The notes beneath the pieces were generated by a model. It worked only from the letters and a program-made list of their open reading frames with translations. It was not told the origin of the DNA and made no database searches. A stretch of 64,000 bases of DNA, taken from assembly GCA_032718475.1 (NCBI GenBank), contig JAUCBJ010004955.1:1-64000 (forward strand). Direction: 5' to 3'. The position numbers and the translations under genes are program-made. Positions 2,327 through 43,401 of this stretch are shown here, piece by piece; the stretch's first letter is position 1, and each line of letters begins with the position of its first letter. The DNA comes from Nemertoderma westbladi. Its lineage: Eukaryota; Animalia; Xenacoelomorpha.

Positions 2327-5300
2327 TTATTGTGTGCTTCTCCTTCCCATTCTGTTGGGGAGACACGAGTTGGTTTGGGACCTAATCTCGTGTCCCCCAA
2401 TATTGCTTATTGGCTTAACTTTGTGGAGTATTGGCGGGATTGATTCGCTAACAGCGTGCAACAAGATATGATGTTTCGCACCACACTTTGCACACCTTAT
2501 GTCAGAGAAACAGGTTCGCCGTTGGTGTCCTTGTCTGAGGCAATTATAACATAACCGCTTATCCCACATGACTTCGCGTCTCTCTGTTAATGATTTCTTT
2601 AGAAATTCATCACACCTATTCAAATGGTGGGTCCCGTCGCACAGCGCACATTTCGGTTTGATGTTACTTACCTTAGTCTGAGTCACATTGTGTACACTGG
2701 CCCTTTCTTCGGGTTTTCTCACCTGAATTCTCTTGGGAGACGTGGGAGGAGTTTTTCTTACCTGTTCCCTCCTGTCATTTGTTCGAGACTTGAATTTACT
2801 TACCTGATCTTTAGGCATTTTATTCACGTAATAAGATCTATCCGTGTCCTTCCCGCTATCTTCTCCTTGAGAAGTCTGGCTTTCGCCGTCATCGGTATAA
2901 CATACTGGTGTTACTTTTCTCCTAGAGACGGGTTTTTCACTTACCTTGTTTTCCGGTGTTTTCTCCCTAGACAGTTTCAGGAGCTGTAATTTCACTTCTC
3001 CATCTAGGAATGACATGAGATCAGCCATGGTAGGGTCTCGCCGTTGTTGTTCCATCATATATAACACTTTCTTATCCCAGCGTGTACCTACTCCACCTTT
3101 CGGTAAAGTAGAAGCCACTGCTCTAATAACCATAGTGTTCTGATACTCATGAGACTTACCTAGCCAATCTAATTGTCTGCAGATCTCCTGGATCTCATCG
3201 GAAAACTCGATAATTCCGCTACTAATAAACTTTCGGGGCGCTACTAACTTTGCATACAAGTACCCAGCGATATTATTCCTATTACCATACCTGATGTTTA
3301 GTGTATCCCAAACTTGTCTTAATCCGTCTGGATGTCCAATAAACTTTAACGCCATTAACTTGGGAGATCCTTCCAAGCACTCGATGAGGTATCTAAGTTT
3401 CTCTCCATTAGATAGTACAGAGTTCTGTATGTTATCTTTGTAATATTCATTAAAAGGTAACCATTTCATCTCATCTCCATTGAACTTGACGATCTCTCCA
3501 ACCTTTACCGCTTGCCGGGCTTCGGTTCTAGCCATTTGACGCGTAAAACTTTCTTGGGCCATCGTGTTATTTAATATCGAGTTATCGGTATATAAATTTC
3601 TCGGATTATGATCCGGTCTATAGGGAATATCATTATCAACAGGTCTATAATTACCCTTAATAGGGTTCACTATAGGAGTTTCTACTTCGCTAGCAGTATA
3701 AATGCGTGTAGGCTCCACACCTTGCGCATGAGATACTTCAGACCTAACGGGTTGACACATTGTTACAGGGGGTGGTGGTATACCCTTTTGTAAATTTACT
3801 AATTTATCGCGCTCTAGCGCGATATTTTGCTGCACTTCTTGCAACTCTAACTTACTTTCCCTCACTGTTCCCTTTAAATGTTGGACAGTCCCTTCCAACT
3901 CTCGGACCTGTTGGGAGGAGCGTATCCGATTCTCCTTCATCTCTCCGAGGAGAATATCCATCCCCCGCCGTCTCTCATCTACCCAATCAACCGCCGAAAC
4001 GGGATCCGCCAACGTCGTAGCGGGCAGACGAGGGACAACGGGCGACAAATTTGGAATATTTCGCTCGGGGTCCAGGACCTGAACTGTCTCCTGGGCAGTT
4101 CTACGGGGCACAGGTAGCTTAGTGCTATGCAGAGGGAATTTATAGGTAGCTTCAGGGAGCACAGGTGTATCTATTACCGAAGGGGTGATTTCAAGAACAG
4201 GCCTACTTATTTCAGGCTCATCTACTATAGTAGGGAGTCTTTCTATTGTAATTATTTGGTCTGTTGGTTCTGTACTCTCTAAGTTGGTGTTATTTAGTTG
4301 CCTTCTAACAGCTGGAGGCAAATCAGGCAATTTCTGACGGTGGAATGTTCTTTTACGTCTGCTTAGGCGGGATCGATTTCCTCCGCCTTCAGTGTCGGTG
4401 GTATCGCCTTCCTCAGATGATGTATAACCTTGTCGTTTGGGAGTAGATCGATTCATCATCTGCATATTACTAGCTGTTAACTGTTTATTAAAGTTATCTT
4501 GCCTCTCTTGAAGATTTTCCAACTCTAGTTGGGTTGTCTCTTCAGATGCCCTCCGTTCTGCTTCTGCCACTGCTATCTTTCTTTCCGCTTCTGCCGCTGC
4601 CGCTTTCCTTTCCGCTTCTACGGCTGCAGCTGCCGCTTTTGCCTCTGCCGCTGCCGCTTTCCTTTCCGCTTCTACGGCTGCAGCTGCCGCTTTTGCCTCT
4701 GCCGCTGCCTCTGCTGCCTTTCTTTCCGCTTCTGCCGCTGCCACTGCCGCTGCTGCTGTCTTTCTATCTTCTATACGTTTTTTCCTTACTTGTTCTTCCT
4801 TTTCTCTAGCGATGCGGAGTTGTTCATCGAATTTAGCTTGGTTCGCAGCTAACCTATCCACATCGATCGCATCTAACACAAGTTTGGCTCCTTCGCTATT
4901 AGGGCTAAGTCCCTCTAGCCTTCTCCTCAACTCTTCATCTCCCAAAAAACGCTGATAGTCTGACAGATAGATATCAATGGCATCCTTCTTATGCGGTTTC
5001 TCTGCCGTCGCTTCACTTTCCACTTGGGAAAAAGTAGCGTCCGTCGATTCTCCATGTGTTGAGCGCTCCTCCAACTGAGCTTTCCACTGAGCTGCTCCTT
5101 GAACCTGGCGTCTCACCCTTTGAAGCCAAGTCTTTACGGCAACTTGCAACGACGTGTCTTGTCTTCTTTTAGAAGCCTCCTCAAAGGCGGATAAGATTAG
5201 CCTAATTCGCAGAACTCTTTCTCTAACTTGATAAAGCAGCTGTCCCTGCTCTTGAGGTCCTTGAGGTTGTTTAAACAGCTGTCTTTCTACTCGCTCCATA

Positions 5301-5935
5301 GAGCTGAAGAATCCCTGTGCGTATCCGGCTGCGGACCTCTTCCATACAGCTGGATCGATGGTTTCCTTGGCTACTCCCATCCGGTGTATGTCTTCCCAGG
5401 CAGCTTCTGATAAATCAAACGGGAGTCCGGGTCCGGGGAAGTTCCATTGCGACTCGACAATAGACTTCAATTCTTCCCTCGTGTACCCCGCATAACTATC
5501 TCTAGTTGATCGTTGACTCCTCGCCCAATCGATCTGGTGTTCTTCCACCGCGATCAATAACCTAGTGAGTACGGCTGCAGGAAGGATGAGAAGGGGATCC
5601 GTATAAACCGCATCCGTCATCTCTGCTCCGCGCTCGGGTGTCAGCTCTACAGTATCCTCACTACTGGAGCTGCTGGGCCGCTGAGGAATAAGTTCTTGAC
5701 TCGCGGGTTGTTGCTGTTCCGCTGCTTCTTGGTCCCGCTTGACCTGAGCTCGAGTGCCTATGATAGACCTACGATGTTGGACTAGCCTAGGTTCTGTTAT
5801 TACTACTGGAGGGATGACCTTCCTCACAGTGGGAGGTGAACTGAATTTACGACCAGACGGTTGTACGTCTCTATCTGAGTCGCAGATAGTTACATCTAAT
5901 ATACTGTCTGACAGGTTCTGCTTAGTATCAGACAT
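2327..5935 (-). CDS. gag: BEL/Pao Gag (DUF1759-like capsid region plus three zinc knuckles), no protease or pol fused
   Basis: KFNGDEMKWLPF...EKLRYLIECLEG...LNIRYG motif; knuckles CALCDGTHHLNRC, CYNCLRQGHQRRTC and CAKCGAKHHILLH, typical of BEL/Pao. The ORF stops ~40 aa after the last knuckle. Confidence 0.9.
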   Translation of the reverse strand: MSDTKQNLSDSILDVTICDSDRDVQPSGRKFSSPPTVRKVIPPVVITEPRLVQHRRSIIGTRAQVKRDQEAAEQQQPASQELIPQRPSSSSSEDTVELTPERGAEMTDAVYTDPLLILPAAVLTRLLIAVEEHQIDWARSQRSTRDSYAGYTREELKSIVESQWNFPGPGLPFDLSEAAWEDIHRMGVAKETIDPAVWKRSAAGYAQGFFSSMERVERQLFKQPQGPQEQGQLLYQVRERVLRIRLILSAFEEASKRRQDTSLQVAVKTWLQRVRRQVQGAAQWKAQLEERSTHGESTDATFSQVESEATAEKPHKKDAIDIYLSDYQRFLGDEELRRRLEGLSPNSEGAKLVLDAIDVDRLAANQAKFDEQLRIAREKEEQVRKKRIEDRKTAAAAVAAAEAERKAAEAAAEAKAAAAAVEAERKAAAAEAKAAAAAVEAERKAAAAEAERKIAVAEAERRASEETTQLELENLQERQDNFNKQLTASNMQMMNRSTPKRQGYTSSEEGDTTDTEGGGNRSRLSRRKRTFHRQKLPDLPPAVRRQLNNTNLESTEPTDQIITIERLPTIVDEPEISRPVLEITPSVIDTPVLPEATYKFPLHSTKLPVPRRTAQETVQVLDPERNIPNLSPVVPRLPATTLADPVSAVDWVDERRRGMDILLGEMKENRIRSSQQVRELEGTVQHLKGTVRESKLELQEVQQNIALERDKLVNLQKGIPPPPVTMCQPVRSEVSHAQGVEPTRIYTASEVETPIVNPIKGNYRPVDNDIPYRPDHNPRNLYTDNSILNNTMAQESFTRQMARTEARQAVKVGEIVKFNGDEMKWLPFNEYYKDNIQNSVLSNGEKLRYLIECLEGSPKLMALKFIGHPDGLRQVWDTLNIRYGNRNNIAGYLYAKLVAPRKFISSGIIEFSDEIQEICRQLDWLGKSHEYQNTMVIRAVASTLPKGGVGTRWDKKVLYMMEQQRRDPTMADLMSFLDGEVKLQLLKLSREKTPENKVSEKPVSRRKVTPVCYTDDGESQTSQGEDSGKDTDRSYYVNKMPKDQVSKFKSRTNDRREQVRKTPPTSPKRIQVRKPEERASVHNVTQTKVSNIKPKCALCDGTHHLNRCDEFLKKSLTERREVMWDKRLCYNCLRQGHQRRTCFSDIRCAKCGAKHHILLHAVSESIPPILHKVKPISNIGGHEIRSQTNSCLPNRMGRRSTQ

Positions 5936-6021
5936 GACTATGTATACCGTTGAATGTCTACTACTGTATTACAGTCTGAGCAAGTCTAGTAACTCAGTAT
6001 TAACTGCTAGCCTAATAATTA

Positions 6022-8451: not shown

Positions 8452-8463
8452 TATATCCTTTAA
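8452..8463 (-). promoter_or_regulatory. Non-tRNA primer-binding site of element A (TTAAAGGATATA), complementary to LTR 9212-9223
   Basis: Directly abuts the LTR end; no TGG start; 12/12 reverse-complement match inside the LTR. Confidence 0.75.
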
Positions 8464-9666
8464 TGTTCGCGCTTTTAGACCTTTGGCAGTTTAACCCGCC
8501 AATTTAAGATGTCTTCTAGATATTAAATCGCTTTTTAGCCTATGACAAGTATTTGATTCACTACACTAGTCGAAACCAATCTATGCGCGACCATTCACCC
8601 GCTGGATATTCCCGGGAGATTGGGTTCGACGGTTTAATTTTATTGCTATGTAAGCCTAATGTATTATTCGACTGACAGTATTATATAATCTCTGACAATA
8701 TTATTCACCTTCGGGAATATTAACAGTTCCTTTAGGACGTGGCGCTTTATTTATATAAACAGAGTTATGACTTAAACTACTCACAACGATATGGCTTAAT
8801 TATAATTCACATATATGACGCATTCTTTAGGAAATGCTTCTTTAACAGACTCACTCGTACACAATGCTGCACAATACTGCACACTAATCTGCCAATCTTC
8901 ACTGATTTTAGTCACATATAAAAGGAACACAGACTGACTCATGTAGGGTCTATCAAATAACATTAGATTCACTTCAAACCACTTTAACATAAGTCACAAT
9001 CGTTATTGGTAACCTTTCTCTCTTACCTTCGGTATATCAAGAATATTGGGTGCCGGGGTTATTTCTCGTTATTCCAATATAATAATTCATCAACAAATAT
9101 AATGAATAACCGACAACAAATAGCAGTATACGGTATTGATTGAGCAGGTAATTTTAGCAGCAGTTGTTCAAGTGATTAAAAGCCAGTTTGTTTGTTTTGG
9201 CAATCAGTCAGTTAAAGGATATATGTCCTTATAATTAAACCTACTAGTGTTGAGCTAAAAAGCAGAAAGCACAAAACACTAAAAGCCGTTCTTTCGTGGC
9301 TTTGAAAAACTCGTGACTACTACTCTATACGAGGATACTAACTACCCTTATTCCACGAAGTTCCCGTTCAACACAGAGAAAGAGCAGTGAGATAGGAAAA
9401 TTTCAGTTCAGTAGCTCTGTGATAGGTCAAAATCAAGGCTAACTCAAATTCTATTGGGAGATACAAAAACAAGGCTATGACGCAACCTCCCTAGGCTTGT
9501 TGGCCGATTAAACAGAGCCCAGATGCCTGCGTACAGCAAATCAGCCAATAAGCTGGTAACTTGCACTATTTTTAGCTATAGATCCCTTTAGAGAGTATTC
9601 TAGCGACTGGGGGGGGGAACTGGCCAACAAGGCAAACGAATCAGTTATCCCACAAAAGCTTTTACA
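8464..9666 (-). repeat. 5' LTR of BEL element A (1203 bp)
   Basis: Plus strand starts TGTTCGCGC and ends AAAAGCTTTTACA, as in the LTRs of element B. The left ~700 bp align with B; the right ~430 bp (U3) have diverged. Confidence 0.9.
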
Positions 9667-16701: not shown

Positions 16702-16732
<31 letters not shown>

Positions 16733-20360: not shown

Positions 20361-20831
20361 TGTAATGCCGTGTTACTATGTAAAGTTGTGCATGCCTGAA
20401 TATTTAGTAGGAATGGAACTAGAATAACCAGAACTGACATTTAATATATAGTCACATAAATCACTAATAATATAGACACTAAGTTAAAAGCATGAAGACC
20501 ACATATGTAGTGTAGTAAACATTAATTCCCATTTTATTATCTTTTCTTATTCCGTTCTAAATAATATTTGTATGTCTACCATTAGTTACATTATAGAATA
20601 GATAAAGTAGTTAGTTATGCATGGGAGAGATTATCGTAGGATAACATTATATAAAGGCAAGACAGAAAACGAAAGGAAGAGAAAAACATTTCAGAAACAT
20701 TAAAATCCTTAACTGTAATATTTTGATTATCATATTTTATTATTATCTCAATTATGTAAAGGTCATAATAAATATAGAAAACTAAATAAACTTTATTTTA
20801 TTGAAATATAACATCCATAATAACCTTTACA
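20361..20831 (+). repeat. 3' LTR of the Gypsy element (471 bp)
   Basis: Copy of 16185-16654, preceded by the PPT and followed by the TSD. Confidence 0.95.
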
Positions 20832-25675: not shown

Positions 25676-25801
25676 GTCCTCAAAATAATATAGAATTCAT
25701 CATAATATCTTTAATTTAAATTTGTCCCAAATAGGTTGTTTATGTCCCATATACTGTAGGGTGTTTGTGTCCCGTATAGGGTGTTTTTGTCCCAAATAGC
25801 A

Positions 25802-27021
25802 TGTTCGCGCTTTTAAGACTTTTGGCAGTTTAACCCGCCAAATCTATATGTCTTCTAGGTTATAAATCTACTCCAGCCTATGACAAGTATTGAACACCTA
25901 TAATAATTCTAACATTAGCCAAAGCCAGTCTGTGCGCGACCATTCACCCGCTGGATATACCCGGGAGACTGGATTTGGATGCTTTAATTTGATTGCGGTG
26001 CAGGCCTACCGTACTATTCGATTGATCGTTAATATATAATCTCTGACAAATATTATTCACTTTTGGGAAATATTAGCAGTTCCTTTAGGACGTGGCGCTC
26101 TATCTATTTAAACAGAGCTATGACTTACACTATACACAACGGTATGTCTTATAGATCACCAAAGTGCATTCTTTAGGAAATGCTTTGTTACTCGGTCAAG
26201 CACACACAGACTATTGCACACAACTGCACACTGAATTGCCGATATTCACTGATTTTAATCATATATAAAGAGAATAACAACCGACATTTGTAGGGCCTAT
26301 TAGGTAGCATTGAATTCACTACAAACCATGATAATGTATGTCGCAAATTGTTATATGTAACCTGTCTCTCTAACCTTAGTGTATCAAGAAGATTGGGTTT
26401 TCGGATCGTTATCAATATTCTTCCCAATAATAATATGTAAATGAACGATACAATTAACAACGCAGTAAATAGCAGTAAATAATGCAGCGAAAAGCAGTTT
26501 ACGTCAGGGTGCTTAATCAGATGCCGAGGTGCAAAACCGTGATAACCGTTTGATGATCTTATAATTAAAGACACTCTAATGTCAGAAAACATTCCCCGGC
26601 CGGTGTTCTAGGCGTGGGGGAAACGTCAGTACTGAACCCTGTAATTCTGCTGTACAGCTTTTACACAAAGAGGGAATCTCTGATTGGTCGAATGGCAAAA
26701 GGCTCCACGTGGACACAGCTGATAGATGTCGTCATTTTGAGCTGAGCAGAACAAAGAACCAAGGCAAGGCTCCGGGCAAGCTACACGTGTAAAGCTCAGC
26801 CGTTAGCTGTCGTCATAGTAACGACACTGTTTCAAGAGGATCTAGGGCGTTGCGTCATAGAATTGCTAATTATGTCCTCTAAAGTACACATACAGAAGAA
26901 ATAGCTTTTATGTCCCCTAAAAACACCGGTACAGCAATGACACGGCCTTTTATGCCTGCTAAACCAACTACAGAGTACTTTACGGGGAAAATAACCGGGC
27001 AATTCCGCAAAAGCTTTTACA
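25802..27021 (-). repeat. 3' LTR of BEL element B
   Basis: TGTTCGCGC...AAGCTTTTACA; direct repeat of 36295-37514. Confidence 0.95.
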
Positions 27022-30000
27022 CCGCTCCCAGAAAATGGGATTTTAGTCTATAAAATATAAAAATCACAGTTTCTAAAATATAAAGATACTCTAAACAGTT
27101 AGTTTTTCTTGCGCGGACGGCGTTTACGCAGTTTCTTGAGACTAGCAAGAGTCCTTTTCTCTTTGGGGCGAGCCACTTTACCAGGAGGGTTATAACTCCT
27201 GGGTGAAGGGTGCAATACAATTGCATCAGAAGGTTTAGGGTTACGGTCAGTGTCTCGTCCATTTCGATCTGCTTCTCCTCGAGCTGATTTTCCTCCGCTT
27301 GTCGTTGGACACGCTCGTCCAAAACTCTCGCAGAGAATAGAGTTGTCTAAGCTCGATATCTTCTTAGAGATTCAAGATTTCCCAATCGAACTGAGATAAA
27401 GCCAATTCGTTTACCGCTTGGACTTGCTGTTATAACTTACGTTTATCTGAACAAACGCAGGTTTCCTTTCTGATCTTTGTAGAATAGCGTTTAACTCGTT
27501 TCGTACAACGCTCTCCTTCACCTTGATGAAGGGTTGTATCGCGTTAAACTGGGACGACCACACGGTTGAATGGTGATATTAGGTGTCCGCGTCCCAATAC
27601 GGTTAGGTAAGATGGGTGGCTAGCTAGAGCTCGCTGCCGGAGTGTTACCGATTAATTGTTAGGGTAGCACTAGATCTTTGAACAGTGCATACAGCTCGTG
27701 AGGATCCGGGATACCATCAGAATCGAAAGTCTGAGGTCTAATCAAGGAACGAGGTGGTCTGACTGAGTATTCCGGAACTATGATCGTAGGTTTACTTAAG
27801 GATCATCTGAGTCGAGCGAGCGTAGGTGATATGTCGAACAAGTTTCGGTTTCCGTGGATGTTTTTATGTCTTTCCGTTTATTAGTTGGGTCTAGGGCATT
27901 TATCGTAATAATACCAAAGACGCACGTCTGGTAGGGGAAACGCGGATGATATTTATTTGTTGTTACAATGCTTCTATCAAGAATTCCAAATATACGTTAG
28001 AGTTACCGCGTCCATTTGTCTCTCTAATGTCTTTTCTTTCGAGTCGATTTCGAATATAATTTTCGCATTCGCATTTCAGTTTATCGTTCCGACTCCGCTG
28101 GGTAGGATATATCGTGTGAATCGATAGAATGGCCAATGGTTAAGAAGTTCATATACGTACTATTACGATGCGTGTAGCGAGCGGTGAAATTTCCATAGTC
28201 CAATTCACGCGTAAGTTGCTTCGAGGAAATCGTCGGTTCGATATAACGACCATTGTCCTCCGTAGTAGTTGGACTAGCGTCGCCGCGTATCAAACTATCA
28301 ACAAACACTTGTAAAGGTAGAGTATATCGCTCCCCGATACCAAGACCATCTTCTATCAACTCCGTTATATCTGCTATATATGAGTTTATTAATATTATAA
28401 TGAGCTTATAATTAGGCTAGCGAGCGTCGCTGCCTACCCCAATCAGCCCCCGGACAGTGTACGATCCTCAGCGCAAATGTATCGTCGTCGCTGTGTTTTC
28501 CGCCAACGTGTAGCTACACAACAACAACGACACTAGCACGAGTCACTCCACTGTCCGTCCCAAAGGCTTAGATACACTTCAGGTTCTTACTGGAGAGTTA
28601 GGGTTACTTTCACAATTGCGACTCGCTACTGTAAACACACCTTAGTAGTAACATTCGCCTATAAACTCACAAATTCCACACACACAACTGTCACAAATTA
28701 CACACACTCGGGCCATTTGTCCGTTAGTCAGTGCCTTCCAGAATGCCACGTTATTATTATGTATCCTTGGATACTAGCAGTGCGCTATTTATTTCTTACT
28801 ATGCAATGGGGCAAGCTTTCTATTGTTCTTTTTAACTTGTTTCTAATTCTAGCGTGGGTGTTACTATGGTGACATTATGGAAAGCTAGCGGTAGAATTAG
28901 GGTAATTCCAATGCATACAGCTCTGGGATGCTATTTAATAGTAATTCTTTAATGGTCCAATATCTCGTTTATATATGATTTTATAAATTTTATCGGCTAT
29001 TGACTCATACATGGGAGATTCTCACACTCTAACAAACTTAATAAGATGAATCTCCGCTCCCGTGATCTATTAATTAATGGGATTTTGGGAATGTTATAAA
29101 TTGCACAGAATGACAATTTATTAAATTCATTAAAATATGAATTCAAATTTATTCCCTGAAATTTTATTATTTGATAGTGCAATTGACACAATTTGGTTCC
29201 AGAGCAGGTCTGGGGACATAGGATCCTTAATTCTATGAAAATTGTCTTTTAAGAGTATCGGTAAGTGCTACGATATCTTAATCGACTAGAATTGTTAAAG
29301 GATCTGAATTTTACAGATTTTGATTTATAGATTTATAAATATTAAATAATTAATATTTGAGATGGACACCAATTTATTCCAGAACTTGTCTGGGGACGTT
29401 AACCACTGATTCTAGAATTTGTCTTTCAAGTATATCGGTGGGTGCCGCGATATCTTAATCGACTAGAATTACAGATGGTCAAAAGGTTTAACAGATTTAT
29501 TTGCGTTGTACACTACTGTTAAAGGGACATCACGCTACTATATGTATTATTTAATACACGGTATGAGAGCAATATCGCACGAAGCAATTTCAGTGTGAAG
29601 AGGCAAGTCGTTTCCAAGGTCTACCCAGAGCTTGGTTTAGCCGAGACACGAGGATCTGAACTTTGCATTCCTAATACTCTGTCTACCAATAATACTTGAA
29701 TATAGTAGTGGCTTTATTGTACTTTAATAAGTACAGACATTTCATCTTACTGTAGTCACGTATTTATAATATGATACGGACAGTAAGGAAAGAGAAAAAT
29801 AGTTATATCTCGCCGTCACACTAAATATATATTATAAGTAATTACGTACGTAATAAACACTAATATATTGCACTAATCTACTAAATAATCACTAAAATAA
29901 CATTATACTGAATAAAATTAAAGAAAACGATTATAATAAAATTACATAATAATACATACATAAATATAAAATAAAAACAAATATAAAATGATATAGTCAC

Positions 30001-30051
30001 ACGCCCACTCCATATGTTATTACGTTATGGAGTCCCTAGATATTTGTCGGA

Positions 30052-33000
30052 TTAGGGAAGTGGTCGTAGGAAGAGTATCTTGCCTTCCATAGTTTCACAG
30101 TTCCACAGTTTTCGGTCTCTTTCCAGTAAACATAAACGACCAGCTGGGCGATTGAGTTGTTGTGTTACTTTCTCCGCTCCCTTGGCCTGTCTAATCTCCG
30201 CCGTGGTAAGATGAGGAGGCCATTCTTCTTCTTCTTTACTTAAGAAGTCGGATCCACCTAACCAGCCTGGAGTATCTATCAGTTCTTGAGGAGTTGCTCC
30301 TCTGGAAGCAATGTCGGCTGGATTAATCGTCCCAAGGCAATGTCTCCATTGATCTATATTGGAGTTAATATCGTCATTATCTGAGGAGTATGGTGTTCCC
30401 TCAGTTAGTTCGTCCACCTCACTGCTCTCCACTTCCCATTCCTTTACTTGGTATACCTGTTGTTGAGGTGATCTCTCTTTGAGAGTTCTACGGGAAGGGC
30501 CAGTGAAGTACCAACCTACTCTAGTTCTTACCGCATAGGTTTGTAGTGGCTGTGGTTGAGCAGGCTGTTTCTCCAATGTCTCTAGCGCCTCATGCGCGTT
30601 TTGGCCGATGAGTATTTGCACTCCAGGATAATCTGTGTGGAATCGAGGTATCTTAAACTGCTGGATGCTCTCGTCCTCGTCCCAGTTATAAGGTTCTACT
30701 TGGGTAGTAGCGAAGTTCTTTATAGCCACCATTTTTACTGACCTTATACTTTGTTCTCCTAATTTATCCTGGGGGGTGGACAACGCACCTACATAGTAAT
30801 CTGCCGTTATGGTAGATTTCCAAACCTGCATAATTCCTGACATATTCAACTTAGTTCGGAATTTGGGTTGTCCAGCAAAGATGTCTTCGGCTAGTTCTTG
30901 ATCGATGAATGTTCCTGTGCTGCCGGAGTCAAGGAGGGCGTTCACTATGTAACTTTTGTTAGGACCGTGAACTCTTACCTGCACTACAGGAAATTCTCTG
31001 ATTCCTACGTTGGAAGTTGGAGGTTTCCAAGATGGTTGTCTGTCAAAGGTAGTTGGGGGGAACTCATTGTCGGTGTCCTTTTCATACGTAAGTGCTCGAT
31101 ACACTGCGGTATTTATTAGGTAACAGGATTCGTTGGCGTCGGAGAATTCGTCCGTATAGAATCCTTCCATCTCAGATTCTTGATCAGTGTCATTTACATC
31201 ACTGAATTGGACATGTAGTTCGGGCGCACTTACCTGACTCGGGTTGTTTCGTTCGAATTCACTGTGTAACAAGATGTGATGTTTCGCACCGCACTTTGCA
31301 CACTTTACGTCGGAGTAACAGGTTCGCCGTTGGTGTCCTTGTCTGAGGCAATTATAGCATAACCGCTTATCCCACATGACTTCACGTCTGTCTACCAGGG
31401 ATTTCTTTAGGAATTCAGCACACACACTCAAACGGTGGGGCCCGTCGCACAGCGCACATTTTGGTTTGATGTTACTCACTTTACCTTGGGTAACGTTATG
31501 CACTCTCGTTCTTTCTTCGGGCTTTCTTCCGTGAATTCTCTTAGGAGACGTAGGAGGAGTTGTTGTTACCTGTTCTCTCCTGTCACTGGTTCGAGACTTA
31601 TATTTACTTACGTCTTTATAGGTCTTGTTGTCATAGTAAGATTTTGCTGTGTCTTTCCCGCTGTCCTCTTCTTGAGAAGCTTGGCTTTCGCCGTCGTCAG
31701 TATAACACACTGGTGTTACCCTTCTCCTAGAAACGGGTTTCTCACTTACCTTATTTTCCGATGTTTTCTCTCTGGACTGCTTTATGAGTTGTAATTTTAC
31801 TTCACTATCTAAGAAGGACATGAGATCAGCCATGGTAGGGCCTCGTCGTTGCTGCTCATTCATATACAACACTTTCTTGTCCCAGCGTGTACATACTCCA
31901 CCCTTTGGTAAAGTAGAGACTACGGCTCCAATAACCATGGAACTCTGATATTCATGAGACTTACCTAACCAATCCAATTGTCTACAGATCTCCTGAATCT
32001 CATCGGAAAACTCTATAATCCCGCTACTAAGGAACTTTCGGGGGGCTATTAATTTTGCATACAAATACTTAGCTATGTTATCCTTGTTACCATACCTGAT
32101 GTTTAATGTACCCCAAACTTGTCTTAATCCATCTGGATGTCCAATAAACTTTAACGCCATTAACTTGGGAGGTCCTTCCAAGCACTTGATGAGGAATCTA
32201 AGTTTCTCTCCGTTAGATAGTACAGAGTTCTGTATGCTATCTTTGTAATATTCATTAAAAGGTAACCATTTCATCTCATCTCCATTGAATTTGACGATTT
32301 CTCCCACTTTGACCGCTTGGCGGGCTTCTGTTCTAGCCATCTGACGCGTAAAGCTTTCTTGGGCCATCGTGTTATTTAATATCGAATTATCGGTATATAA
32401 ATTTCCCGGATTATTATCAGGTCTATAGGGAATATCATCAACAACAGGTTTATAATCACCCTTAATAGGGTTTGCTATAGGAGTTTCTACTTCACTAGCA
32501 GTATAGATGCGTGTAGGCTCCACACCTTGCGCATGTAATACTTCAGACCTAACAGGTTGACACAATGTTACAGAGGGTATTGGTATACCCTTTTGTATAT
32601 TGACTAATTTGTCGCGTTCTAGCGCGATGCTTTGCTGCACTTCTTGCAATTCTACCCTACTTTCCCTTAATGTTACCTTGAGTTGGTGGACAGTCTCCTG
32701 CATCTGTCCGAGCAGGAGATTCATCCCCCGCCGTCCCTCCTCTACCCACTCGACCGCCGAAGCGGGAGTCGCCAACATTGTAGCGGGCAGACGCGGGACG
32801 ACGGGAGACAAATCTTTGATTTCTCTCTCAGCGTCCAGGACAGGGATATTCTCATGGACTGTTCTACTGGGTACAGGCAGTGTAGTACTGTGTAAAGGGG
32901 ATTTAGAGTTAAGCTCTGGAAGTACAGGGGTCTCTAGCACAGGAGTGGCTTTGGGAACGACAGGCCTAATTATTTCAGGCTCATCAACTATCGTAGGGAG

Positions 33001-34044
33001 TCTTTTGACCTTAATAATTTGGTCTGTGGGTTCTGTATTACCTAAGTCTGTGCTAGCTAGTTGTCTTCTAACCGCTGGGGGCAAATCAGGCAATTTGTGA
33101 CGATGAGATGTTTTTCTACGCCTGCTTAGACGAGATCTATTTCCTCCGCCTTCAGGATCGGTGGTCTCGCCTTCTTCCGATGATATGTATTCTTGGCGTT
33201 TGGGAGTAGATCGACTCATCATCTGCATTTGACTAGCAGTTAACTGTTTATTTATGTTGTCTTGCGTCTCTTGCAGATTTTCCAACTCCAGTTGGGTAGT
33301 CTCCTCAGACGCTCTCCGTTCTGCTTCTGCCACTGCCCTTGCCTCTGCTACTGCTGCTGCCTTTCGGTCCTCTATCCGTCTTTTCTTTACTTGTTCTTCC
33401 TGGACTCTAGCGAGGCGGAGTTTTTCATCAAATTTAGCTTGGTTCGCAGCTAACATTTCCGCATCGATTGCGTCCAACACAAGCTTGGTTCCTTCACTAT
33501 TAGGGCGAAGTCCAGACAGTCGTCTCCTCAACTCTTCGTCTCCTAGGAATCGCTGATAGTCTGACAGATAAATATCAATAGCGTCTCTCTTTCGCGGCTC
33601 CCCCGCTGTCACTTCGCTTTCTTCTTGAGAAGAAGTGGCGTCGGTTGATTCTTCAAAGGTTGGCCGCTCATCATAAACCGTATCCGCCATCTTCGCTCCG
33701 CGTTCGGGCGTCCGCTCAACAGTATCCGAACTACTGGAGCTATCGGGCCGCTGAGAACTAGGTTCTTGGCTAGGAGGTTGCTGCTGTTTGATAGCTGCTT
33801 CTTGATCCCGCTTGACTTGGGCCCGAGTGCCGATGATAGACCTACGCTGTTCTACTAGCCTAGGGTCTGATACTACTACTGTAGGGATGGCCTTTCTTAC
33901 AATAGTAGGTGACTTAGACTTGTATCTAGGATGTTCTATACTTTGATCTTGGTCACAGATCCTTTTAATACGCTGTCTAAGTCTAATACTCATTCTAACA
34001 CTTTCTAAGAGACTGTCTGACAGTGATTGGGTTGCGCCTGACAT
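30052..34044 (-). CDS. gag: BEL/Pao Gag-protease fused in frame to the RNase H tail and the extreme integrase C-terminus
   Basis: Same Gag and knuckles as element A; PR ALLDSGSTGTFI...ILIG...TRVGW. Then directly WRHCLGTINPADIASRG...WP (end of RH) and RPAGRLCLL (end of IN). No YxDD RT motif or DDE core. Confidence 0.9.
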   Translation of the reverse strand: MSGATQSLSDSLLESVRMSIRLRQRIKRICDQDQSIEHPRYKSKSPTIVRKAIPTVVVSDPRLVEQRRSIIGTRAQVKRDQEAAIKQQQPPSQEPSSQRPDSSSSSDTVERTPERGAKMADTVYDERPTFEESTDATSSQEESEVTAGEPRKRDAIDIYLSDYQRFLGDEELRRRLSGLRPNSEGTKLVLDAIDAEMLAANQAKFDEKLRLARVQEEQVKKRRIEDRKAAAVAEARAVAEAERRASEETTQLELENLQETQDNINKQLTASQMQMMSRSTPKRQEYISSEEGETTDPEGGGNRSRLSRRRKTSHRHKLPDLPPAVRRQLASTDLGNTEPTDQIIKVKRLPTIVDEPEIIRPVVPKATPVLETPVLPELNSKSPLHSTTLPVPSRTVHENIPVLDAEREIKDLSPVVPRLPATMLATPASAVEWVEEGRRGMNLLLGQMQETVHQLKVTLRESRVELQEVQQSIALERDKLVNIQKGIPIPSVTLCQPVRSEVLHAQGVEPTRIYTASEVETPIANPIKGDYKPVVDDIPYRPDNNPGNLYTDNSILNNTMAQESFTRQMARTEARQAVKVGEIVKFNGDEMKWLPFNEYYKDSIQNSVLSNGEKLRFLIKCLEGPPKLMALKFIGHPDGLRQVWGTLNIRYGNKDNIAKYLYAKLIAPRKFLSSGIIEFSDEIQEICRQLDWLGKSHEYQSSMVIGAVVSTLPKGGVCTRWDKKVLYMNEQQRRGPTMADLMSFLDSEVKLQLIKQSREKTSENKVSEKPVSRRRVTPVCYTDDGESQASQEEDSGKDTAKSYYDNKTYKDVSKYKSRTSDRREQVTTTPPTSPKRIHGRKPEERTRVHNVTQGKVSNIKPKCALCDGPHRLSVCAEFLKKSLVDRREVMWDKRLCYNCLRQGHQRRTCYSDVKCAKCGAKHHILLHSEFERNNPSQVSAPELHVQFSDVNDTDQESEMEGFYTDEFSDANESCYLINTAVYRALTYEKDTDNEFPPTTFDRQPSWKPPTSNVGIREFPVVQVRVHGPNKSYIVNALLDSGSTGTFIDQELAEDIFAGQPKFRTKLNMSGIMQVWKSTITADYYVGALSTPQDKLGEQSIRSVKMVAIKNFATTQVEPYNWDEDESIQQFKIPRFHTDYPGVQILIGQNAHEALETLEKQPAQPQPLQTYAVRTRVGWYFTGPSRRTLKERSPQQQVYQVKEWEVESSEVDELTEGTPYSSDNDDINSNIDQWRHCLGTINPADIASRGATPQELIDTPGWLGGSDFLSKEEEEWPPHLTTAEIRQAKGAEKVTQQLNRPAGRLCLLERDRKLWNCETMEGKILFLRPLP

Positions 34045-36283
34045 GTTTGTTTGTACAGTTGAATGCCTACTGCTATATTACAGTTAAAGCAAGTCTAGTA
34101 ATTCAGTATCACTGTTAGCCTAATAATTAATTACCGATACTGCTACTCAGTGTAGCGTGATATATATAATATATTAGAATACCGGTATGCTTATAGTAGA
34201 TATATAAGTATTATTACAGACTAGATTTGTCACAGAATACCGGTATATAATTTTAGCACAAATATATATAAATATATAATAGGCCTATCGTGAATACCGG
34301 TATACAGCTGACACTTATATTATATATAAGTATAATTATTACAGACTAGAATTAATTACAGAATACCGGTATGATTTCAGCCTAAATTTATAGAATAAAT
34401 ATAATAAGCCTATTGTAAATACCGGTATGTCAATTATTTTAAAAATAATTGAATTTCTGAATGTTAGGGGTTACTTGGTTACTTTACTTACTTTATTACC
34501 GTTATTTGAGCAGCAGTCCAACTGATATTAAGACCTAAGTGTTGTATAACAGGCCTACTATTTTATTAATAGATTTAGTGGATTTATATGTACCCGTATG
34601 AGGGGTTTTGTTACAATATTGAAATAGATGTTATTATTTCTGGGAAGTAGTCACTACACAAAGGCTGTGCGCTCTCAGTGAAGTGCTACTTATTGGACAC
34701 TAAAACAAATAATTCTACTTCCTAAGTTACTTATCTACGAATTACTTACGATACGGGTGAGATTAAATCTCTAATTAAACACAACAAAAATATTACGTAC
34801 GAAATTTTAGGGTAATTTTACAGGGAACTACAAACCAGTCTAACAGAGTGTTAGATTTTCTGGTTATTACAACGGACAGGATACTACGGTATTTGAAAAT
34901 AATAAGTAGTAGTAAATACACTGTGTTGTCCAGATAGGAAAATACCACCGTCTGACGACCTATAGCCGTATCACTATAGGTACTACATTATGTATCACGG
35001 AGTGTCCCTACCTAGATGTTAATTACCGCGGTCTACCAGAACCAACGTGCCTATTAACCACTTTACAACACAAATATACTGCCTACACACTAATTACATT
35101 CGGAAAGCACTGTACACTAAACCCTAAATTAGGTACAAGTACTTGTACAACAAATAATCAGTAGTTATAAAATACTTGAACAGCTAAAAGAACCACGGCA
35201 TCTGCTGGAGTGACCGGTGCACAAGATCACCAGTCTTTACCTACGCCAAGCAGCCCGTGTAGTACCGGGGTTAATTTAACTATAACGGTATATATAACAA
35301 GCACAATTACTGTAGGAATAAACTTAGGGATATGAATGTTGCAAATAATCGCATAAACTCTGAATAATAAATATTACGCTACCCGTACAAACTACTCAAA
35401 CAAATTACAAACCAAATGCTGGCAGACTACCATCAAGCCCAAATAAATTACAGTATGTGCAGATTCCGAAATAGTTAGTTAGTATGCGTTCTAACCTAGT
35501 AGTACGACTTATTCTTTAGGTGGGGATTTACCTTACAGCTCTGGCTGCCCCTACTTCCTAACCGTCACTTTATCGGACAGACACTCTACACACACAGCAA
35601 TCCCTTCAGACCTAATAACAGCCAGACAACAATCCAGCCTACAAAATATCTGAATAATAACTATTACGGTACCTGAACAGACCACACAAACAAACACAGG
35701 CTAAAACGCTGGCAGACTACTATCAAGCCTAAATAAACTACAGTATATGCAGATTCCAAAATGGTTAGTTAGTATGCGTTCTAACACTGTAGTACGACTT
35801 ATTCTTTAGGAGGGGGTTGACCTTACAACTCAAGATGCCCCAACTTACTAACTGGCACTTTATCGGACAGACTCCACACACGCCGCAATCTCTCCAGACC
35901 CAATCAACAGTCAGACAACAGTCCAGCCTACAATTATCTGAACAATCTGAGCAGGGTTACACGCCTTCTGCTCAATATTAGCCTACTAGTAAATAAAACT
36001 GACAGAAATAAGTAAAAGTCCCAATAAAAAACCAGGGCTGCAGTCCCTAATTTAATATCAAGACCTACCGGTATACAATTATCAAAATCGAATAATACTG
36101 CTGTACCTGTACTGTTGTAAGTACCGGTCCGGATGATCAGGCAGTCAGGCCTACTGGTTACCGGTCAACCGGTACTTTAGTCTTGATCGCTTACGCCGCA
36201 ATAAAGATCCTACAAACTGTTATTGTTCTTACCAGAACAATATTAAACTGTATTTATTGCCTACACTGCAATCAAGAATTTTA

Positions 36284-36294
36284 CAAACGGTTAT
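36284..36294 (-). promoter_or_regulatory. Non-tRNA primer-binding site of element B (ATAACCGTTTG), complementary to LTR 37035-37045
   Basis: Directly abuts the LTR end; 11/11 reverse-complement match inside the LTR. Confidence 0.75.
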
Positions 36295-37514
36295 TGTTTG
36301 CGCTTTTAAGACTTTTGGCAGTTTAACCCGCCAAATCTATATGTCTTCTAGGTTATAAATCTACTCCAGCCTATGACAAGTATTGAACACCTATAATAAT
36401 TCTAACATTAGCCAAAGCCAGTCTGTGCGCGACCATTCACCCGCTGGATATACCCGGGAGACTGGATTTGGATGCTTTAATTTGATTGCGGTGCAGGCCT
36501 ACCGTACTATTCGATTGATCGTTAATATATAATCTCTGACAAATATTATTCACTTTTGGGAAATATTAGCAGTTCCTTTAGGACGTGGCGCTCTATCTAT
36601 TTAAACAGAGCTATGACTTACACTATACACAACGGTATGTCTTATAGATCAGCAAAGTGCATTCTTTAGGAAATGCTTTGTTACTCGGTCAAGCACACAC
36701 AGACTATTGCACACAACTGCACACTGAATTGCCGATATTCACTGATTTTAATCATATATAAAGAGAATAACAACCGACATTTGTAGGGCCTATTAGGTAG
36801 CATTGAATTCACTACAAACCACGATAATGTATGTCGCAAATTGTTATATGTAACCTGTCTCTCTAACCTTAGTGTATCAAGAAGATTGGGTTTTCGGATC
36901 GTTATCAATATTCTTCCCAATAATAATATGTAAACGAACGATACAATTAACAATGCAGTAAATAGCAGTAAGTAAAGCGGCGAAAAGCAGTTTACGTCAG
37001 GGTGCTTAATCAGATGCCGAGGTGCAAAACCGTGATAACCGTTTGATGATCTTATAATTAAAGACGCTCTAATGTCAGAAAACATTCCCCGGCCGGTGTT
37101 CTAGGCGTGGGGGAAACGTCAGTACTGAACCCTGTAATTCTGCTGTACAGCTTTTACACAAAGAGGGAATCTCTGATTGGTCGAATGGCAAAAGGCTCCA
37201 CGTGGACACAGCTGATAGATGTCGTCATTTTGAGCTGAGCAGAACAAAGAACCAAGGCAAGGCTCCGGGCAAGCTACACGTGTAAAGCTCAGCCGTTAGC
37301 TGTCATCATAGTAACGACACTGTTTCAAGAGGATCTAGGGCGTTGCGTCATAGAATTGCTAATTATGTCCTCTAAAGTACACATACAGAAGAAATAGCTT
37401 TTATGTCCCCTAAAAACACCGGTACAGCAATGACACGGCCTTTTATGCCTGCTAAACCAACTACAGAGTACTTTACGGGGAAAATAACCGGGCAATTCCG
37501 CAAAAGCTTTTACA
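36295..37514 (-). repeat. 5' LTR of BEL element B
   Basis: Direct repeat of 25802-27021, followed by TSD TAGCA. Confidence 0.95.
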
Positions 37515-39544
37515 TAGCATGTGACTTTCTCAAAATGATTTTATATAATTTCTAAATGTCATGGAATACTCAAAACAATATAGAATTCACTACCATAGCT
37601 TTAATTTAAATTTGTCCCAAATAGGTAGTTTTTGTCACATATAGGGTGTTTGTATCCCGTATCGGGTGTGAATTGCTTATAATGATTTCAAATAGTTTCT
37701 AAATATACTATTACTACAGTCCCGCTCTCAAAAAGCATTCCTTTGATCAAACATTGATCAAACTTTGATCAAACATTGATCAAAGTTTGATCAAAATGTG
37801 TCCATAGAATATCATTGAAAGTAGCATTGACATTGAAATGACATTGATGGCATATTGAAATGACCTTGAAATCGACGCACCGAAATTCCAGACTTTCTGT
37901 CTCATATTGAAATGACATTGAAATGATTTCAAGGTAACAGTTTACATCTCTCAACTGCGGCAAGCCTTTGAACTCAGATTCCCGCCGAGAACTGGCTTTT
38001 GTTAATGGCCAAGTCGCTATGTGATTGACAGGGCAGTGGATGGAGCTTGCTTGACTTTGTGGATGGACCGCGATTGGATTTACATGGCAGTGTTGTGGTA
38101 GTGTCCCAGACTGAGTCTTGTTCTTGTAGGGCAGGGCCTATTATTACACTAACAACTAGTTCAGAAAAACATCCTTTGGAATATTTTTAAATTATTGTTA
38201 TATTAGAAATTAGTTTCAATGTTCCTTAAATCAGAATCAAGTCCAAAGACCTCCATTGACGTAGCAGCGCGATGGCTGCCGTTGCATTGCATTTGCTTAT
38301 ACAGTAATTGTGTAAATTCGACAAGCTTCCTTCCTGCCCCTGTCTCTAATTATACTAATAAATGTAAATAAAGAAATAAATAAATCCGAGCGCTAGCGCC
38401 AGCGCACCCCCTAAAATACCTTCTAAAAATGTACGTAATTTAATTTTAATACTCTGATAAGGTAATTTTATTGAAAATCTAATTTGTTTTAAAGTAAACT
38501 ATGTTATGTACATCATTAGTTACGTATTTTTTAATTCAGATTAACGTATTTTAATTATAATTTTTTAAATATTAAAAATCAAATTGGGTTAGTAATACTT
38601 ATTAAATTATGCTCATTCATTTTTAATTAATGGAGGGTTTTAACCATCCGGCCGACAAACCACACTTTTGCTCACAGGTCGTTGTAAGACAGGACAAGGC
38701 ATCAATATAACCCCAGTGATCCCATCCCCACTCACCCTCCCCCCACCCACCCCATTATATATAATGTATTGTATTGTAGCCATTAGTATAGTTTAGTACA
38801 CATTACTACCTGCATAGTTCCTTTGCGACTAGGCCAGCTCAGTGCCAGGAGGCCAATCTCTTTGGTTGGCGGCCTCCTGTGTGTGGGTTTGGGGGCGGCC
38901 TCCTGTGTGTGGGTTAGTTGGCTGTCTAATTTCTTGGGAAGACTTTATAGTAAATTTCGAAATTTCGGGGAATTCCATTCCACAGCAGATAATTGGTTTT
39001 ACATGCTGGGGCGGCATAAGCTAAGAGCCATTACACAATATGCTATTGCTATGCCTTTAAGTTGTTAGTGGTCTGTCGCTGTCGGCACCCCAAGCTAATA
39101 ATATACAGCAAATAGCACTGAGACCACTGACTCATGTACTCCCTATGACATAATTTGTTGTGACTCGAATCAATTATTTCTCCTTACAAGAAAGCAACGT
39201 ATTTCCCACTTGTGGCCAGCCAGAAGGCCACAATGTCAACTGATATAATTACACCAAGGGATATTCTCATATTACCCACCCCCCCCCCCCCCCCCCCCCC
39301 CGTTTAGAAAAATGCTTTTGTTTCAAAAAATTTGGAATGTGGATCTTTAATATATATTTATATTATTTTGTTCTCATTTCAACTGGAAAGACTTCAGTAT
39401 GCTTTCACATGGCCTCCCCCTCGGTACGCTAGTCCCCCCCCCCCCCCCCCCATTCTAATGTATTGTAGCCATCCACCCAACACATTGCGTAACTCAGAAT
39501 TAAACTCCACACAGCCCATACCCACCCTTGCTTTAATTACCACC

Positions 39545-40336: not shown

Positions 40337-43300
40337 AATAAAAGATATGAAAAAGATATGAGTATGAGAACCCTCCAGGAGAAATACCGGCTCGGTCGTC
40401 GCCCGGGTCAACAAGGACCGCGTCCCTCAGTGGTACACCAGGCTGGGGTCGATAAATTGGCTACTGGAACAGAAGACAGAGAAGAAAGAAGAACAAACCT
40501 GTTGAAATGTAAAAAGACACTAAAGATTGCTACAATGAACGCACGCACGCTGAAAGCACAGAGCAAACAGGGTGACATGGTCGCTCTGGCAATGGAATAT
40601 AACATCGACATCATCTGCATCCAAGAACATCGGATTTGTCATGAAGACACTGCCATGAAGTACAATGACATTGGAAATGGATGGACGTTAGTAACAAGCT
40701 CAGCAGTAAGAAACTCTGGAACTCAGGAATTCTGCTAAGCCCCTTTGCACTTAAGACCCTAAACAACATCGAATCTATAAATTCCAGGGTTATGATCGCA
40801 ACATTTGATGGGAATCCCAAGACAACAGTTATATGTTGCTACAGTCCAACCAATGCATCAGAGCCAGAACAAGCAGTCAAGTTTTATGAAGAACTGACTG
40901 GACTTATTAAGGACATCCCGAAACACAATGTTAAAGTCATTGCTGGTGACCTGAATGCGCAAATTGGCCCAGAAGACATCAAGGGTCACACCTATAACAC
41001 CAGTTCTAACATAAATGGGTACTTACTCTTAGACCTAATGGAAGAATGTGAATTGATACCAACAAACAACACATTCGAAAAGAGTAAGGGGAAGCTATGG
41101 ACCTTTCAATACCCTAATGGAACCAAAGCACAACTGGATTACATCCTTATAAACAAAAAGTGGAGAAATAGCATGATCAACTGCGAGGCATACAGCTCGT
41201 TCAACCTAATTGGTTCGGACCACAGAATTGTGACTGCAGAGATCAGACTCAGTTTGAGAGCCAGCAAACCCAGGACAAGCAAGCAAATCAACTATGACTG
41301 GGAGAAACTCAGAACTGACAATGCTGTAAAGGATGCTTATACAGTAGAAGTTCAAAACCGCTTTGAAGCACTTCAGTCAATGGATGAAGACCAATCCACC
41401 GATTCAATATACCAGAATATAATAACAGCCCACAAGGAATCAGCTAAGAGGCATATCCCCCAGAAACCTAAACGAAAACAGTATGTGCCATGGCAAAACT
41501 CTGAGGTTACTTGTAAGAGAGAAGATCTTAAGATAGCCTACAAAGTTAAAACCGAACAACCAACAACCGAAAACATTAACAAGGTTGAGAAAGCTAAGGA
41601 CGATCTTAAATTGGCCTACAACATCAGCCAGGAAAAGTACATACAGGATATAACTGAAGCAATTACAACTGCTCACATACAGCAACAATCAAGACTTACC
41701 TGGCAAACTGTAAATGAGGTATCTGGTCGGAAAAGTTGTGCAAAGGGGCGCCTCAAAGCCGATAGTCCTGAAGAACGTGTTGGGAAGTGGAAAAATCACT
41801 TCAGCAACTTGCTTGGGCAGCCACCAAACATCGAGGTCAGCCCTACAAGGAAAATATATGACAAGACACTACCTATAGAAACAGGGGACTTCACACCTGC
41901 CGAACTCCAAAGAAGCATTAAAAGCATGTCCAATAATAAAGCGAGTGGATTAGATGAAATCCCAGCGGAGGTATGGAAAACCAGAGTGCTAAATAGACCA
42001 TTATTGAATGTTTGCAACCGGATGTTAAAAGGGGAAAAGCCACCACCAATTTGGACTAAAGGTCAACTAAAGCCTCTCCCCAAGAAAGGAGACCTCGGCA
42101 TACCAACAAACTATCGTGGGATCTGTCTGCTTGTGGTAGCTGCCAAAATATACAATAAAATGATTCTATATAGGATTAGGCCTCACATAGAGAAACTACT
42201 GCGTAAGAGCCAAAACGGATTTCGACCAAGTAGATCAACAATAGCTCAGATACTTGCACTACGGAGACTGATTGAAGGAATCAAGTCAAAGAATCTCCCC
42301 GCAGTCATGACTTTTGTGGACTTCAAGAAGGCATTCGACTCCATCCATAGAGGTAAAATGCTTGAAATCCTAAGAGCTTATGGAATACCAGAAGTAATTG
42401 TTGCTGGCATTGGATTGCTATATTGTGACACAGAAGCGCAGGTACTCTCACCAGATGGTGAAACTGAGTTTTTCTCAATCCTGGCTGGCGTACTGCAAGG
42501 TGACACATTAGCACCATTACTATTTGTAATTGTGCTGGATTACGCAATGAGGACGGCCACAAAGGGTGAAGATCTGGGATTCACACTTCAAGAACGCAGA
42601 AGTAGTAGATATCCGGCAACTACAGTCACAGACACCAACTTTGCGGATGACATCGCCCTGCTCTCTAATACGCTAGCAGATGCACAGCTTCTACTAAATA
42701 AAGTGGAGAGGGCTGCTAAGGAGGTTGGATTGCATATAAATGCTACCAAGACCGAATTCATGACCTTTAATGTTGATGGAAACTTGACAACCATTGATAA
42801 TAATCAACTAAGGCAGGTCGATGACTTCCAGTTCCTTGGATCATGGATAGAGAGTAGCAAAAAGGACATAGAAGTTAGGAAAGCAAAGGCTTGGGTAGCT
42901 CTATCAAAAATGGATACCATCTGGAAATCATATCTCTCCAGGCACCTGAAGACCAAGATCTTTCGAGCCACAGTGGAAAGTGTATTTTTATACGGGGGTG
43001 AGACCTGGACACTGACTAAATCACTTGAACAACGAATTGATGGTTGCTACACAAGACTACTAAGGGCAGCCCTAAACATCAGCTGGAGACAACACATGAC
43101 AAACGCCGAGCTTTATGGTACAATACCACCTGTATCAACCACCCTCCGTGAACGCAGATTAAGATTCAGTGGGCACTGCTGGCGAAGTAAAGACGAGGTC
43201 ATACCAGATCTACTTCTCTGGCAACCAACTCATGGAAAGCGTAGTCGTGGACGACCTGCCATAACATATATAGATCAACTAGAAAGGGATACTGAACTTG

Positions 43301-43391
43301 GGAGAAACGAAATTGCGACAACTATGGAGAATCGGGATCTGGAAGGATCTCATTTCCACTGTCCGAGTTCGCTCGACCTAGTAGTAGTAGT
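40337..43391 (+). mobile_element. RTE-clade LINE, near full ORF (APE + RT), (GTA)n tail, ~13-bp TSD
   Basis: TSD AGTATTTTGAATA (40324-40336, 43392-43404); tail GTAGTAGTAGTAGTA; one frame break near 40725. Confidence 0.92.
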
Positions 43392-43401
43392 AGTATTTTG
43401 A
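40358..43401 (+). pseudogene. RTE endonuclease/reverse transcriptase ORF with an early frameshift (and an altered C-terminal end)
   Basis: IATMNARTL, ICIQEHR (first frame); YSPT, AGDLNA, LDYIL, SDH, NYRGI, VDFKKAFDS, GVLQGDTLAP, FADD, FLGS (second frame). Confidence 0.92.

Follow-up and report, generated by a model that had tools for sequence, protein, structure and literature searches.

Putative Self-Priming of Reverse Transcription in BEL/Pao-Derived LTR Elements of Nemertoderma westbladi

Two related LTR elements, A and B, located in a 64,000-nt stretch of Nemertoderma westbladi DNA (the window), probably initiate reverse transcription by self-priming of the Tf1 type, in a BEL/Pao-derived family described as tRNA-primed. 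In the DNA of each element, a PBS devoid of TGG abuts the LTR and pairs with a site in the element's own LTR. Two flanking duplexes, one between the LTR and its end and the other between the LTR and the leader, are predicted to keep this PBS open in a three-duplex "pretzel" resembling that of Tf1.

Two BEL/Pao-Derived LTR Elements

Element B, a pol-deleted LTR element, was delimited by its LTR pair and TSD. Element A is present with its 5′ LTR and gag, and a second A LTR is absent from the window.

37514-25802, minus strand: element B (BEL/Pao-derived, pol-deleted), delimited by LTR pair and TSD
36295..37514, minus strand: 5′ LTR of B, 1220 nt, TG..CA, from LTR-LTR comparison
25802..27021, minus strand: 3′ LTR of B, 1220 nt, from LTR-LTR comparison
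37515..37519, second copy 25797-25801: TSD of B, TAGCA, 5 bp
30052..34077, minus strand: B ORF, 1341 aa from stop to stop, with Gag (DUF1759, Cys/His knuckles), protease, and Pao RNase H tail
27022..27029, minus strand: candidate PPT of B, a short purine-rich tract preceding the 3′ LTR
8464..9666, minus strand: 5′ LTR of A, 1203 nt, TG..CA
2327..5968, minus strand: A gag ORF, 1213 aa from stop to stop (DUF1759), ending past the Cys/His knuckles

The LTRs of B (36295-37514 vs. 25802-27021) are 99.2% identical. Their 10 differences, all substitutions, together with the 5-bp TSD mark B as a young element that inserted recently. An identical 20-nt tandem repeat is found on both flanks of B (25721-25799 and 37611-37669), and the insertion therefore took place in a minisatellite-like region. 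Between the ORF and the 3′ LTR (27022-30051, minus strand), about 3 kb contain only short ORF pieces of up to ~110 aa, possibly the remains of a decayed additional gene.

A Pfam scan recognized PF03564 (DUF1759) above cut-off in the Gag of both B (E 1.9e-11) and A (E 1e-11), and Cys/His knuckles are visible in the translated ORFs of both elements. The B protease matched an alignment of 32 relatives with a probability of 98.7, and the RNase H tail matched the same alignment with a probability of 96.9 (41% over 54 columns). Neither RT nor integrase was detected by Pfam in the B ORF, and no RT is encoded by A or B inside the window. As B lacks an RT, it must borrow one, which we infer comes in trans from a helper element. 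For the same reason, its structure must be read in trans, with cis signals defined by natural covariation.

The gag genes of A and B share 82–83% DNA identity across two long blocks, and A is a sister subfamily of B. Downstream of the A gag lies an E/R-rich ORF of 563 aa with internal repeats (189-1880, minus strand), which has no Pfam family and no usable Atlas match; it may be part of A or of another insertion. The 150 best relatives of the Gag-protease region of B are 23–37% identical to it. Among 10 relatives scanned, DUF1759 was found in nine and Peptidase_A17 (Pao domain) in eight, and on this basis we regard A and B as BEL/Pao-derived by homology and as a divergent lineage. Since no TGG stands in the first 24 nt past either LTR, we name them BEL/Pao-derived and not canonical tRNA-primed members. 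A 5-bp TSD is typical of BEL/Pao; together with the TG..CA ends and LTRs of 1220 (B) and 1203 nt (A), it agrees with what is expected of this superfamily. The LTR size range given for BEL/Pao is 0.2–1.2 kb (PMC8742986).

Protein searches returned distant relatives only, giving no clade assignment inside BEL/Pao. Searches for related loci by protein or by alignment gave 10 and 9 pattern matches, respectively, none of which was confirmed. Viral contigs queried with an 18-nt LTR motif yielded no match. Both matches of a metagenome scan are due to chance, the similarity ending at the 20–26 nt motif.

A PBS Complementary to the Element's Own LTR

The PBS and the candidate primer of each element are located as follows.

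36284..36294, minus strand: PBS of B, 11 nt, adjoining the LTR end, without TGG, ATAACCGTTTG
37035..37045, minus strand: candidate self-primer of B, LTR positions 470-480
8452..8463, minus strand: PBS of A, 12 nt, abutting the LTR end at 8464, TTAAAGGATATA
9212..9223, minus strand: candidate self-primer of A, 12 nt

An initial annotation of this DNA had proposed that the sequence following the LTR is perfectly complementary to a site in the LTR, in B as in A, and that it differs largely between the two elements. Both statements hold. In B, 36294-36284 is the exact reverse complement of 37045-37035 (11 bp), and in A, 8463-8452 pairs with 9212-9223 over a perfect 12 bp. The two PBSs are identical at five of 11 positions; the other six have changed, and all six changes are compensated in the partner site. 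The primer site lies 740–750 nt upstream of the PBS in the element's own LTR, and the 3′ LTR of B carries an intact copy of it (26542-26552). In A as in B, the duplex begins at the first base past the CA of the LTR and contains neither G-U pairs nor bulges.

The same annotation considered such matches very unlikely to occur by chance, and shuffling bears this out. The complement of the B 11-mer was found in 5 of 20,000 dinucleotide shuffles of the B LTR, or 31 of 20,000 when offsets of 0–5 were allowed; for the A 11-mer (8462-8452), the corresponding counts are 15 and 58 of 20,000. At leader offsets past the PBS, no LTR complement exceeds 9 nt in A or 8 nt in B. Crossed primer/PBS combinations form no duplex (+1.2 and +0.2 kcal/mol) versus −11.6 and −12.7 kcal/mol for the cognate ones. 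In a Gypsy element of the same window, used as control, the PBS is of the TGG type and the LTR complement at offsets 0–7 does not exceed 5 nt. We consider it extremely improbable that the pairing is due to chance, or that part of the LTR was copied into the leader by a single template switch. The post hoc discovery of the site and the fact that only two elements, A and B, are seen in phase leave this reading some room, but the shuffle counts, the homologous position of two different sequences, and a third compensated state described below all argue against it.

The control, a Gypsy-type LTR element (16185-20832, plus strand), has 471-nt LTRs that are 99.4% identical, a DUF7041 Gag, and pieces of RT, RNase H, and integrase broken by stops.

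As a test for a PBS of the tRNA 3′-end type, TGG was searched for and found nowhere in the first 24 nt past either LTR; the window contains no tRNA gene. This test leaves room for internal tRNA matches and thus for a primer made of host RNA, such as a tRNA fragment, the pairing then having a structural or regulatory role as a packaging, translation, or dimerization switch. We judge this quite improbable: in both elements, no base separates the CA of the LTR from the start of the duplex, and structural helices tolerate the G-U pairs and bulges from which the primer duplex is free.

Variation of the PBS and Primer Site in Public Contigs

Seven public runs from four studies were listed, none of them recorded as RNA, and six hold part of the B LTR. 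Contigs of four of them (X1, X3, X4, and X6, the last perhaps derived from RNA) were compared with B, and 40 of the 166 differences were listed. Among those listed, one falls in the B PBS and one in the B primer site. At 36289 in the PBS, G>T accounts for 980.7 of 980.7 depth in X1 (two contigs) and 1198.6 of 1567.3 in X3 (three contigs), with no cover in X4 or X6, contig depth being distinct from copy number and one run possibly being the source of the window itself. At 37040 in the primer site, C>A accounts for 6240.5 of 7855 in X1, 9568.9 of 11340.8 in X3, and 198.6 of 198.6 in X4, with no cover in X6. These are partner positions, and the variants, which are unphased because the contigs are too short, turn a C-G pair into an A-U pair. 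Pair 6 thus carries three different letters across A, the window copy of B, and the B-type contigs, which is hard to fit to priming by one host RNA.

Element A was compared with the contigs of two runs at 90% likeness, giving 22 differences in all. One of them, 8459 T>G in the PBS, occurs at 6.4% and 8.2% of depth; the PBS and primer site are otherwise without differences above 2% in A-type contigs. No change at the partner position 9216 is among the 22, and this at most leans against the pairing. Position 9216 is near a contig boundary: it lies 4 nt from where most A-type contigs stop matching, two joints rejoin at 9213, and the X1 depth on A drops from ~281,000 (9203-9231) to ~1,000 (9174-9202), so that a partner variant could be clipped. 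The conserved block of A-type contigs ends at about the 3′ edge of the primer. An X6 contig aligning at 36305, from a run labeled as another organism, joins an A-type PBS to the LTR end; this run may simply include DNA of the same host.

The covariation between PBS and primer site had been taken to imply selection on pairing rather than on sequence, with a self-encoded primer free to drift between families. A self-encoded primer is supported by the compensatory variants in the contigs and by the Tf1-like flanking duplexes, whereas selection on pairing is one possible cause of the covariation and templating another. In the retroviral mechanism, the primer sequence is transferred back to the PBS during plus-strand synthesis. 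Covariation of PBS and primer can therefore arise by templating, and may signal use as a primer, not necessarily selection.

Predicted Duplexes Flanking the PBS

When the PBS is constrained to stay unpaired, both flanking duplexes appear in the minimum-energy folds of A and of B. The predicted structures are as follows.

36482..36498, minus strand: LTR arm of the predicted LTR-leader duplex of B, 16 bp
36259..36275, minus strand: leader arm of the same duplex, 8 nt past the PBS
8639..8655, minus strand: LTR arm of the predicted LTR-leader duplex of A, 14 bp, partner 8432-8446
36427..36432, minus strand: LTR arm of the predicted short duplex with the LTR end in B, partner 36298-36303
8585..8590, minus strand: LTR arm of the predicted short duplex with the LTR end in A, partner 8467-8472, 6 bp
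36315..36334 in B and 8483-8502 in A, minus strand: predicted 7-bp hairpin, 20 nt before the LTR end, identical in both

Among the 14 pairs of the LTR-leader duplex shared by A and B, two have changed on both sides and one on one side, and none is broken. Because re-copying of the primer cannot template this helix, it is better evidence of selection on structure than the covariation of PBS and primer. In B, none of 300 shuffles matched the duplex (−26.8 kcal/mol); among 19 other leader 30-mers, three pair with the LTR more strongly than the duplex arm. In A, shuffled LTRs form on average a stronger best duplex (−17.9) than the predicted one (−16.0), and the best leader duplex, located elsewhere, is reached by 98 of 300 shuffles. 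The short duplex with the LTR end has five of six pairs in the 5′ LTR of B, and the two LTRs of B differ at that letter. In the A/B alignment, 98.7% of cells pair at the 40 named pairs versus 31–38% when slid, the structure having been derived from the same two sequences and MAFFT having gapped two PBS columns, with four of the six primer changes counted. As to the hairpin, a U5 stem-loop is reportedly required in Tf1, going by the title of a paper.

A nested fold of the whole A 5′ RNA includes the primer duplex from a start at 9223 or 9225 and omits it from 9240 or 9283. The nested fold of the B 5′ RNA never includes it, with a penalty of 9.9 kcal/mol. The primer duplex crosses the leader helix; nested folding therefore picks one or the other and is unreliable.

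Two observations in this region may speak for a structural role of the pairing. First, a local hairpin of the leader arm, of −6.0 in A (8432-8446 with 8424-8430) and −3.5 in B, can compete with the LTR-leader helix. Second, conservation between A and B is far stronger in the part of the LTR 3′ of the primer than in the 5′ part: the regions 36436-36620 and 8594-8767 contain invariant blocks of 20–26 nt, have the highest contig depth, and are likely a structured RNA signal.

The LTR arm of A contains AATAAA (8644), and one may speculate that the LTR-leader helix could mask this poly(A) signal only where it lies in the 5′ LTR. No Rfam family matched the window at gathering; the four LTR matches (E 1.6–4.7) are all far below it, giving no known ribozyme or RNA family in the LTR. 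Tandem units of ~289 nt are found in the 5′ leaders of A (7292-8092, 2.8 copies, 96% alike) and B (35359-35946, two copies, 84%), and 38-nt repeats lie directly beyond the A PBS (8267-8393).

Transcript Start and Origin of the Primer

A and B share an AT-rich motif near the primer site and, further downstream, a candidate poly(A) signal.

37051..37062, minus strand: AT-rich 12-mer of B, invariant between A and B, TTTAATTATAAG on the minus strand
9228..9239, minus strand: A copy of the AT-rich 12-mer
36476..36481 in B and 8633-8638 in A, minus strand: ATTAAA, candidate poly(A) signal beside the duplex arm

The plus-strand motif CTTATAATTAAA occurs in the window only at 9228, 26558, and 37051. 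The initial annotation placed the primer 3′ end 16 nt from it in both elements, which is correct (9228−9212 and 37051−37035), and the minus-strand CA that it proposed as initiator, with its A at 9224 or 37047, is present in both. A CA-initiated 5′ end of 13 nt is one candidate; as pairing stops at 11 nt in B and 12 nt in A, an 11-nt primer starting at 37045 or 9222 fits equally, and the start may also lie elsewhere.

Candidate roles for the 12-mer are a core promoter element, a TATA box, or a 3′-end signal. It is the only conserved AT-rich element and sits 6–17 nt before 37045, too near to be the TATA box of a 5′-terminal primer. As a TATA box, it would place the start ~9 nt downstream of the primer 3′ end; as a 3′-end signal, it would make the RNA terminate at the edge of the primer. 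In both cases, the copy of the site in the 3′ LTR would be the primer, the site belonging to U3 in the first and ending R in the second. The RNA would then fold end to end or pair with a second genome, a cut at the duplex edge freeing the 3′ OH.

We consider such priming from the 3′ LTR copy fairly unlikely, with evidence on both sides. TATAAG begins 21 nt before the primer 3′ end in A and B, a distance that suits a poly(A) hexamer. A TATA-like sequence is absent at 30 nt ahead of the primer, and the A and B LTRs have none in common at any other place. A TATAAAG variant exists in A-type contigs, at 25,486 of 292,266 depth in X3 (8.7%) and 538 of 506,386 in X1 (0.1%), and the site is intact in the 3′ LTR of B. 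Against this, a long 5′ extension of the primer would offer no natural stop for plus-strand copying, yet the complementarity has a sharp limit of 11–12 nt, and an RNA that yielded a U3 primer would lose its 3′ R. The shared ATTAAA further downstream would be an ordinary poly(A) signal, and in the pretzel precedent, as given in the available text of PMC10085805, the primer is 5′-terminal. One specific form, in which the genomic RNA loops, the 3′ LTR site pairs with the pretzel-held PBS, and a cut 16 nt past the AT-rich motif makes the primer, is in our view unlikely. If true, priming from the 3′ LTR copy would be a route unlike both tRNA priming and that of Tf1, in a superfamily described as tRNA-primed.

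The shared ATTAAA and the sharp 11–12 nt limit favor a 5′-terminal primer over the 3′ LTR copy. The position of ATTAAA downstream of the primer could give R a length sufficient for strand transfer. With a 5′-terminal primer, transcription would start at, or at most 2 nt from, 37045 in B or 9222-9223 in A, and the primer is predicted to enter the pretzel as a helix crossing over a loop of 740–750 nt. By analogy with Tf1, RT/RNase H supplied in trans would cut at the 3′ edge of the primer and extend it. Plus-strand synthesis would then re-copy the primer into the PBS, so that both could drift together.

Splicing was also considered. As a splice acceptor, the 12-mer, which ends in AAG, is not favored; A and B share no upstream GTRA donor-like site except the first bases of the LTR. 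A splice-made primer was rejected: of the 5073 (A) and 5603 (B) GT/GC-AG introns, none gives a match across the junction that reaches the length of the contiguous one.

Comparison with Known Priming Systems

As in Tf1/Tf2 of Schizosaccharomyces pombe, Tj1, Tosmo1-3, and the Tf1/sushi group, the PBS of A and B follows the CA of the LTR, complements an LTR site of 11 nt (12 nt in A), and shows no tRNA 3′-end match, as far as the accessible portions of PMC7175516 and PMC4600332 describe these elements. The Tf1 primer has 11 nt, bases 1–11 being released by RNase H (PMC7175516, available portion). The three-duplex pretzel with two PBS-adjacent helices is described for Tf1 in the available text of PMC10085805 and is a prediction in A and B. 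Similarly, the 5′ end and the cleavage were demonstrated for Tf1, according to the available parts of PMC7175516 and PMC10085805, and are assumed for A and B. Unlike the Tf1/sushi elements, which are Ty3/gypsy chromoviruses, A and B have a Pao-type Gag, and B a Pao-type protease and RNase H tail; they are not members of this group. The distance between their primer and the PBS, 740–750 nt, greatly exceeds that in the short LTR of Tf1, which measures ~350 nt. Unlike Tf1, B is also without its own RT.

A and B resemble Belpaoviridae (Semotivirus) in their DUF1759 Gag with knuckles, the Pao-type protease and RNase H tail of B, the 1.2-kb TG..CA LTRs, and the 5-bp TSD of B. They differ from the ICTV description of this family, in which an 18-nt PBS complements the 3′ end of a host tRNA that acts as primer (PMC8742986), in having no TGG-type tRNA PBS. 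The BEL/Pao element Achilles has a tRNA-Tyr PBS (available text of PMC4580426), and the ICTV profile calls BEL/Pao replication poorly understood (PMC8742986).

Self-priming was also predicted for the plant elements Tcn1 (gypsy) and TAR, Houba, and Osr1 (copia), from an LTR complement of at least 10 nt starting 0–5 nt after the 5′ LTR (PMC6317226, accessible part). A and B both have such a complement. These plant elements belong to other superfamilies, and the survey, in the part available, omits BEL/Pao; they suggest that self-priming recurs outside Tf1/sushi. Among the titles returned from the full-text literature searched, none concerns self-priming in BEL/Pao; subscription papers and Repbase Reports lie mostly outside this literature, so an earlier note is possible. 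It is likewise unreported in the accessible portions of PMC3601003, PMC4600332, PMC4580426, PMC8220671, PMC554778, PMC7175516, PMC13524379, PMC6934838, PMC5443660, PMC5341516, PMC10085805, and PMC6317226.

If Tf1-type self-priming by A and B is true, the self-primer and the three-duplex architecture, including RNase H cleavage of an RNA-RNA duplex, arose or persisted in a third LTR superfamily. Such elements would no longer depend on the tRNA supply of the host or be subject to control by tRNA fragments, and BEL/Pao families annotated without a PBS would be accounted for. An LTR complement at the LTR edge offers a simple genome-scale test for self-priming.

Other Repeats in the Window

The window consists of eukaryotic, repeat-rich DNA. 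A non-LTR retrotransposon ORF of 910 aa with endonuclease and RT domains is located at 40669-43401 (plus strand). From ~52600 onward, the sequence is occupied by a large satellite of 38-nt units, for which 230 overlapping family members of 300 nt were listed.
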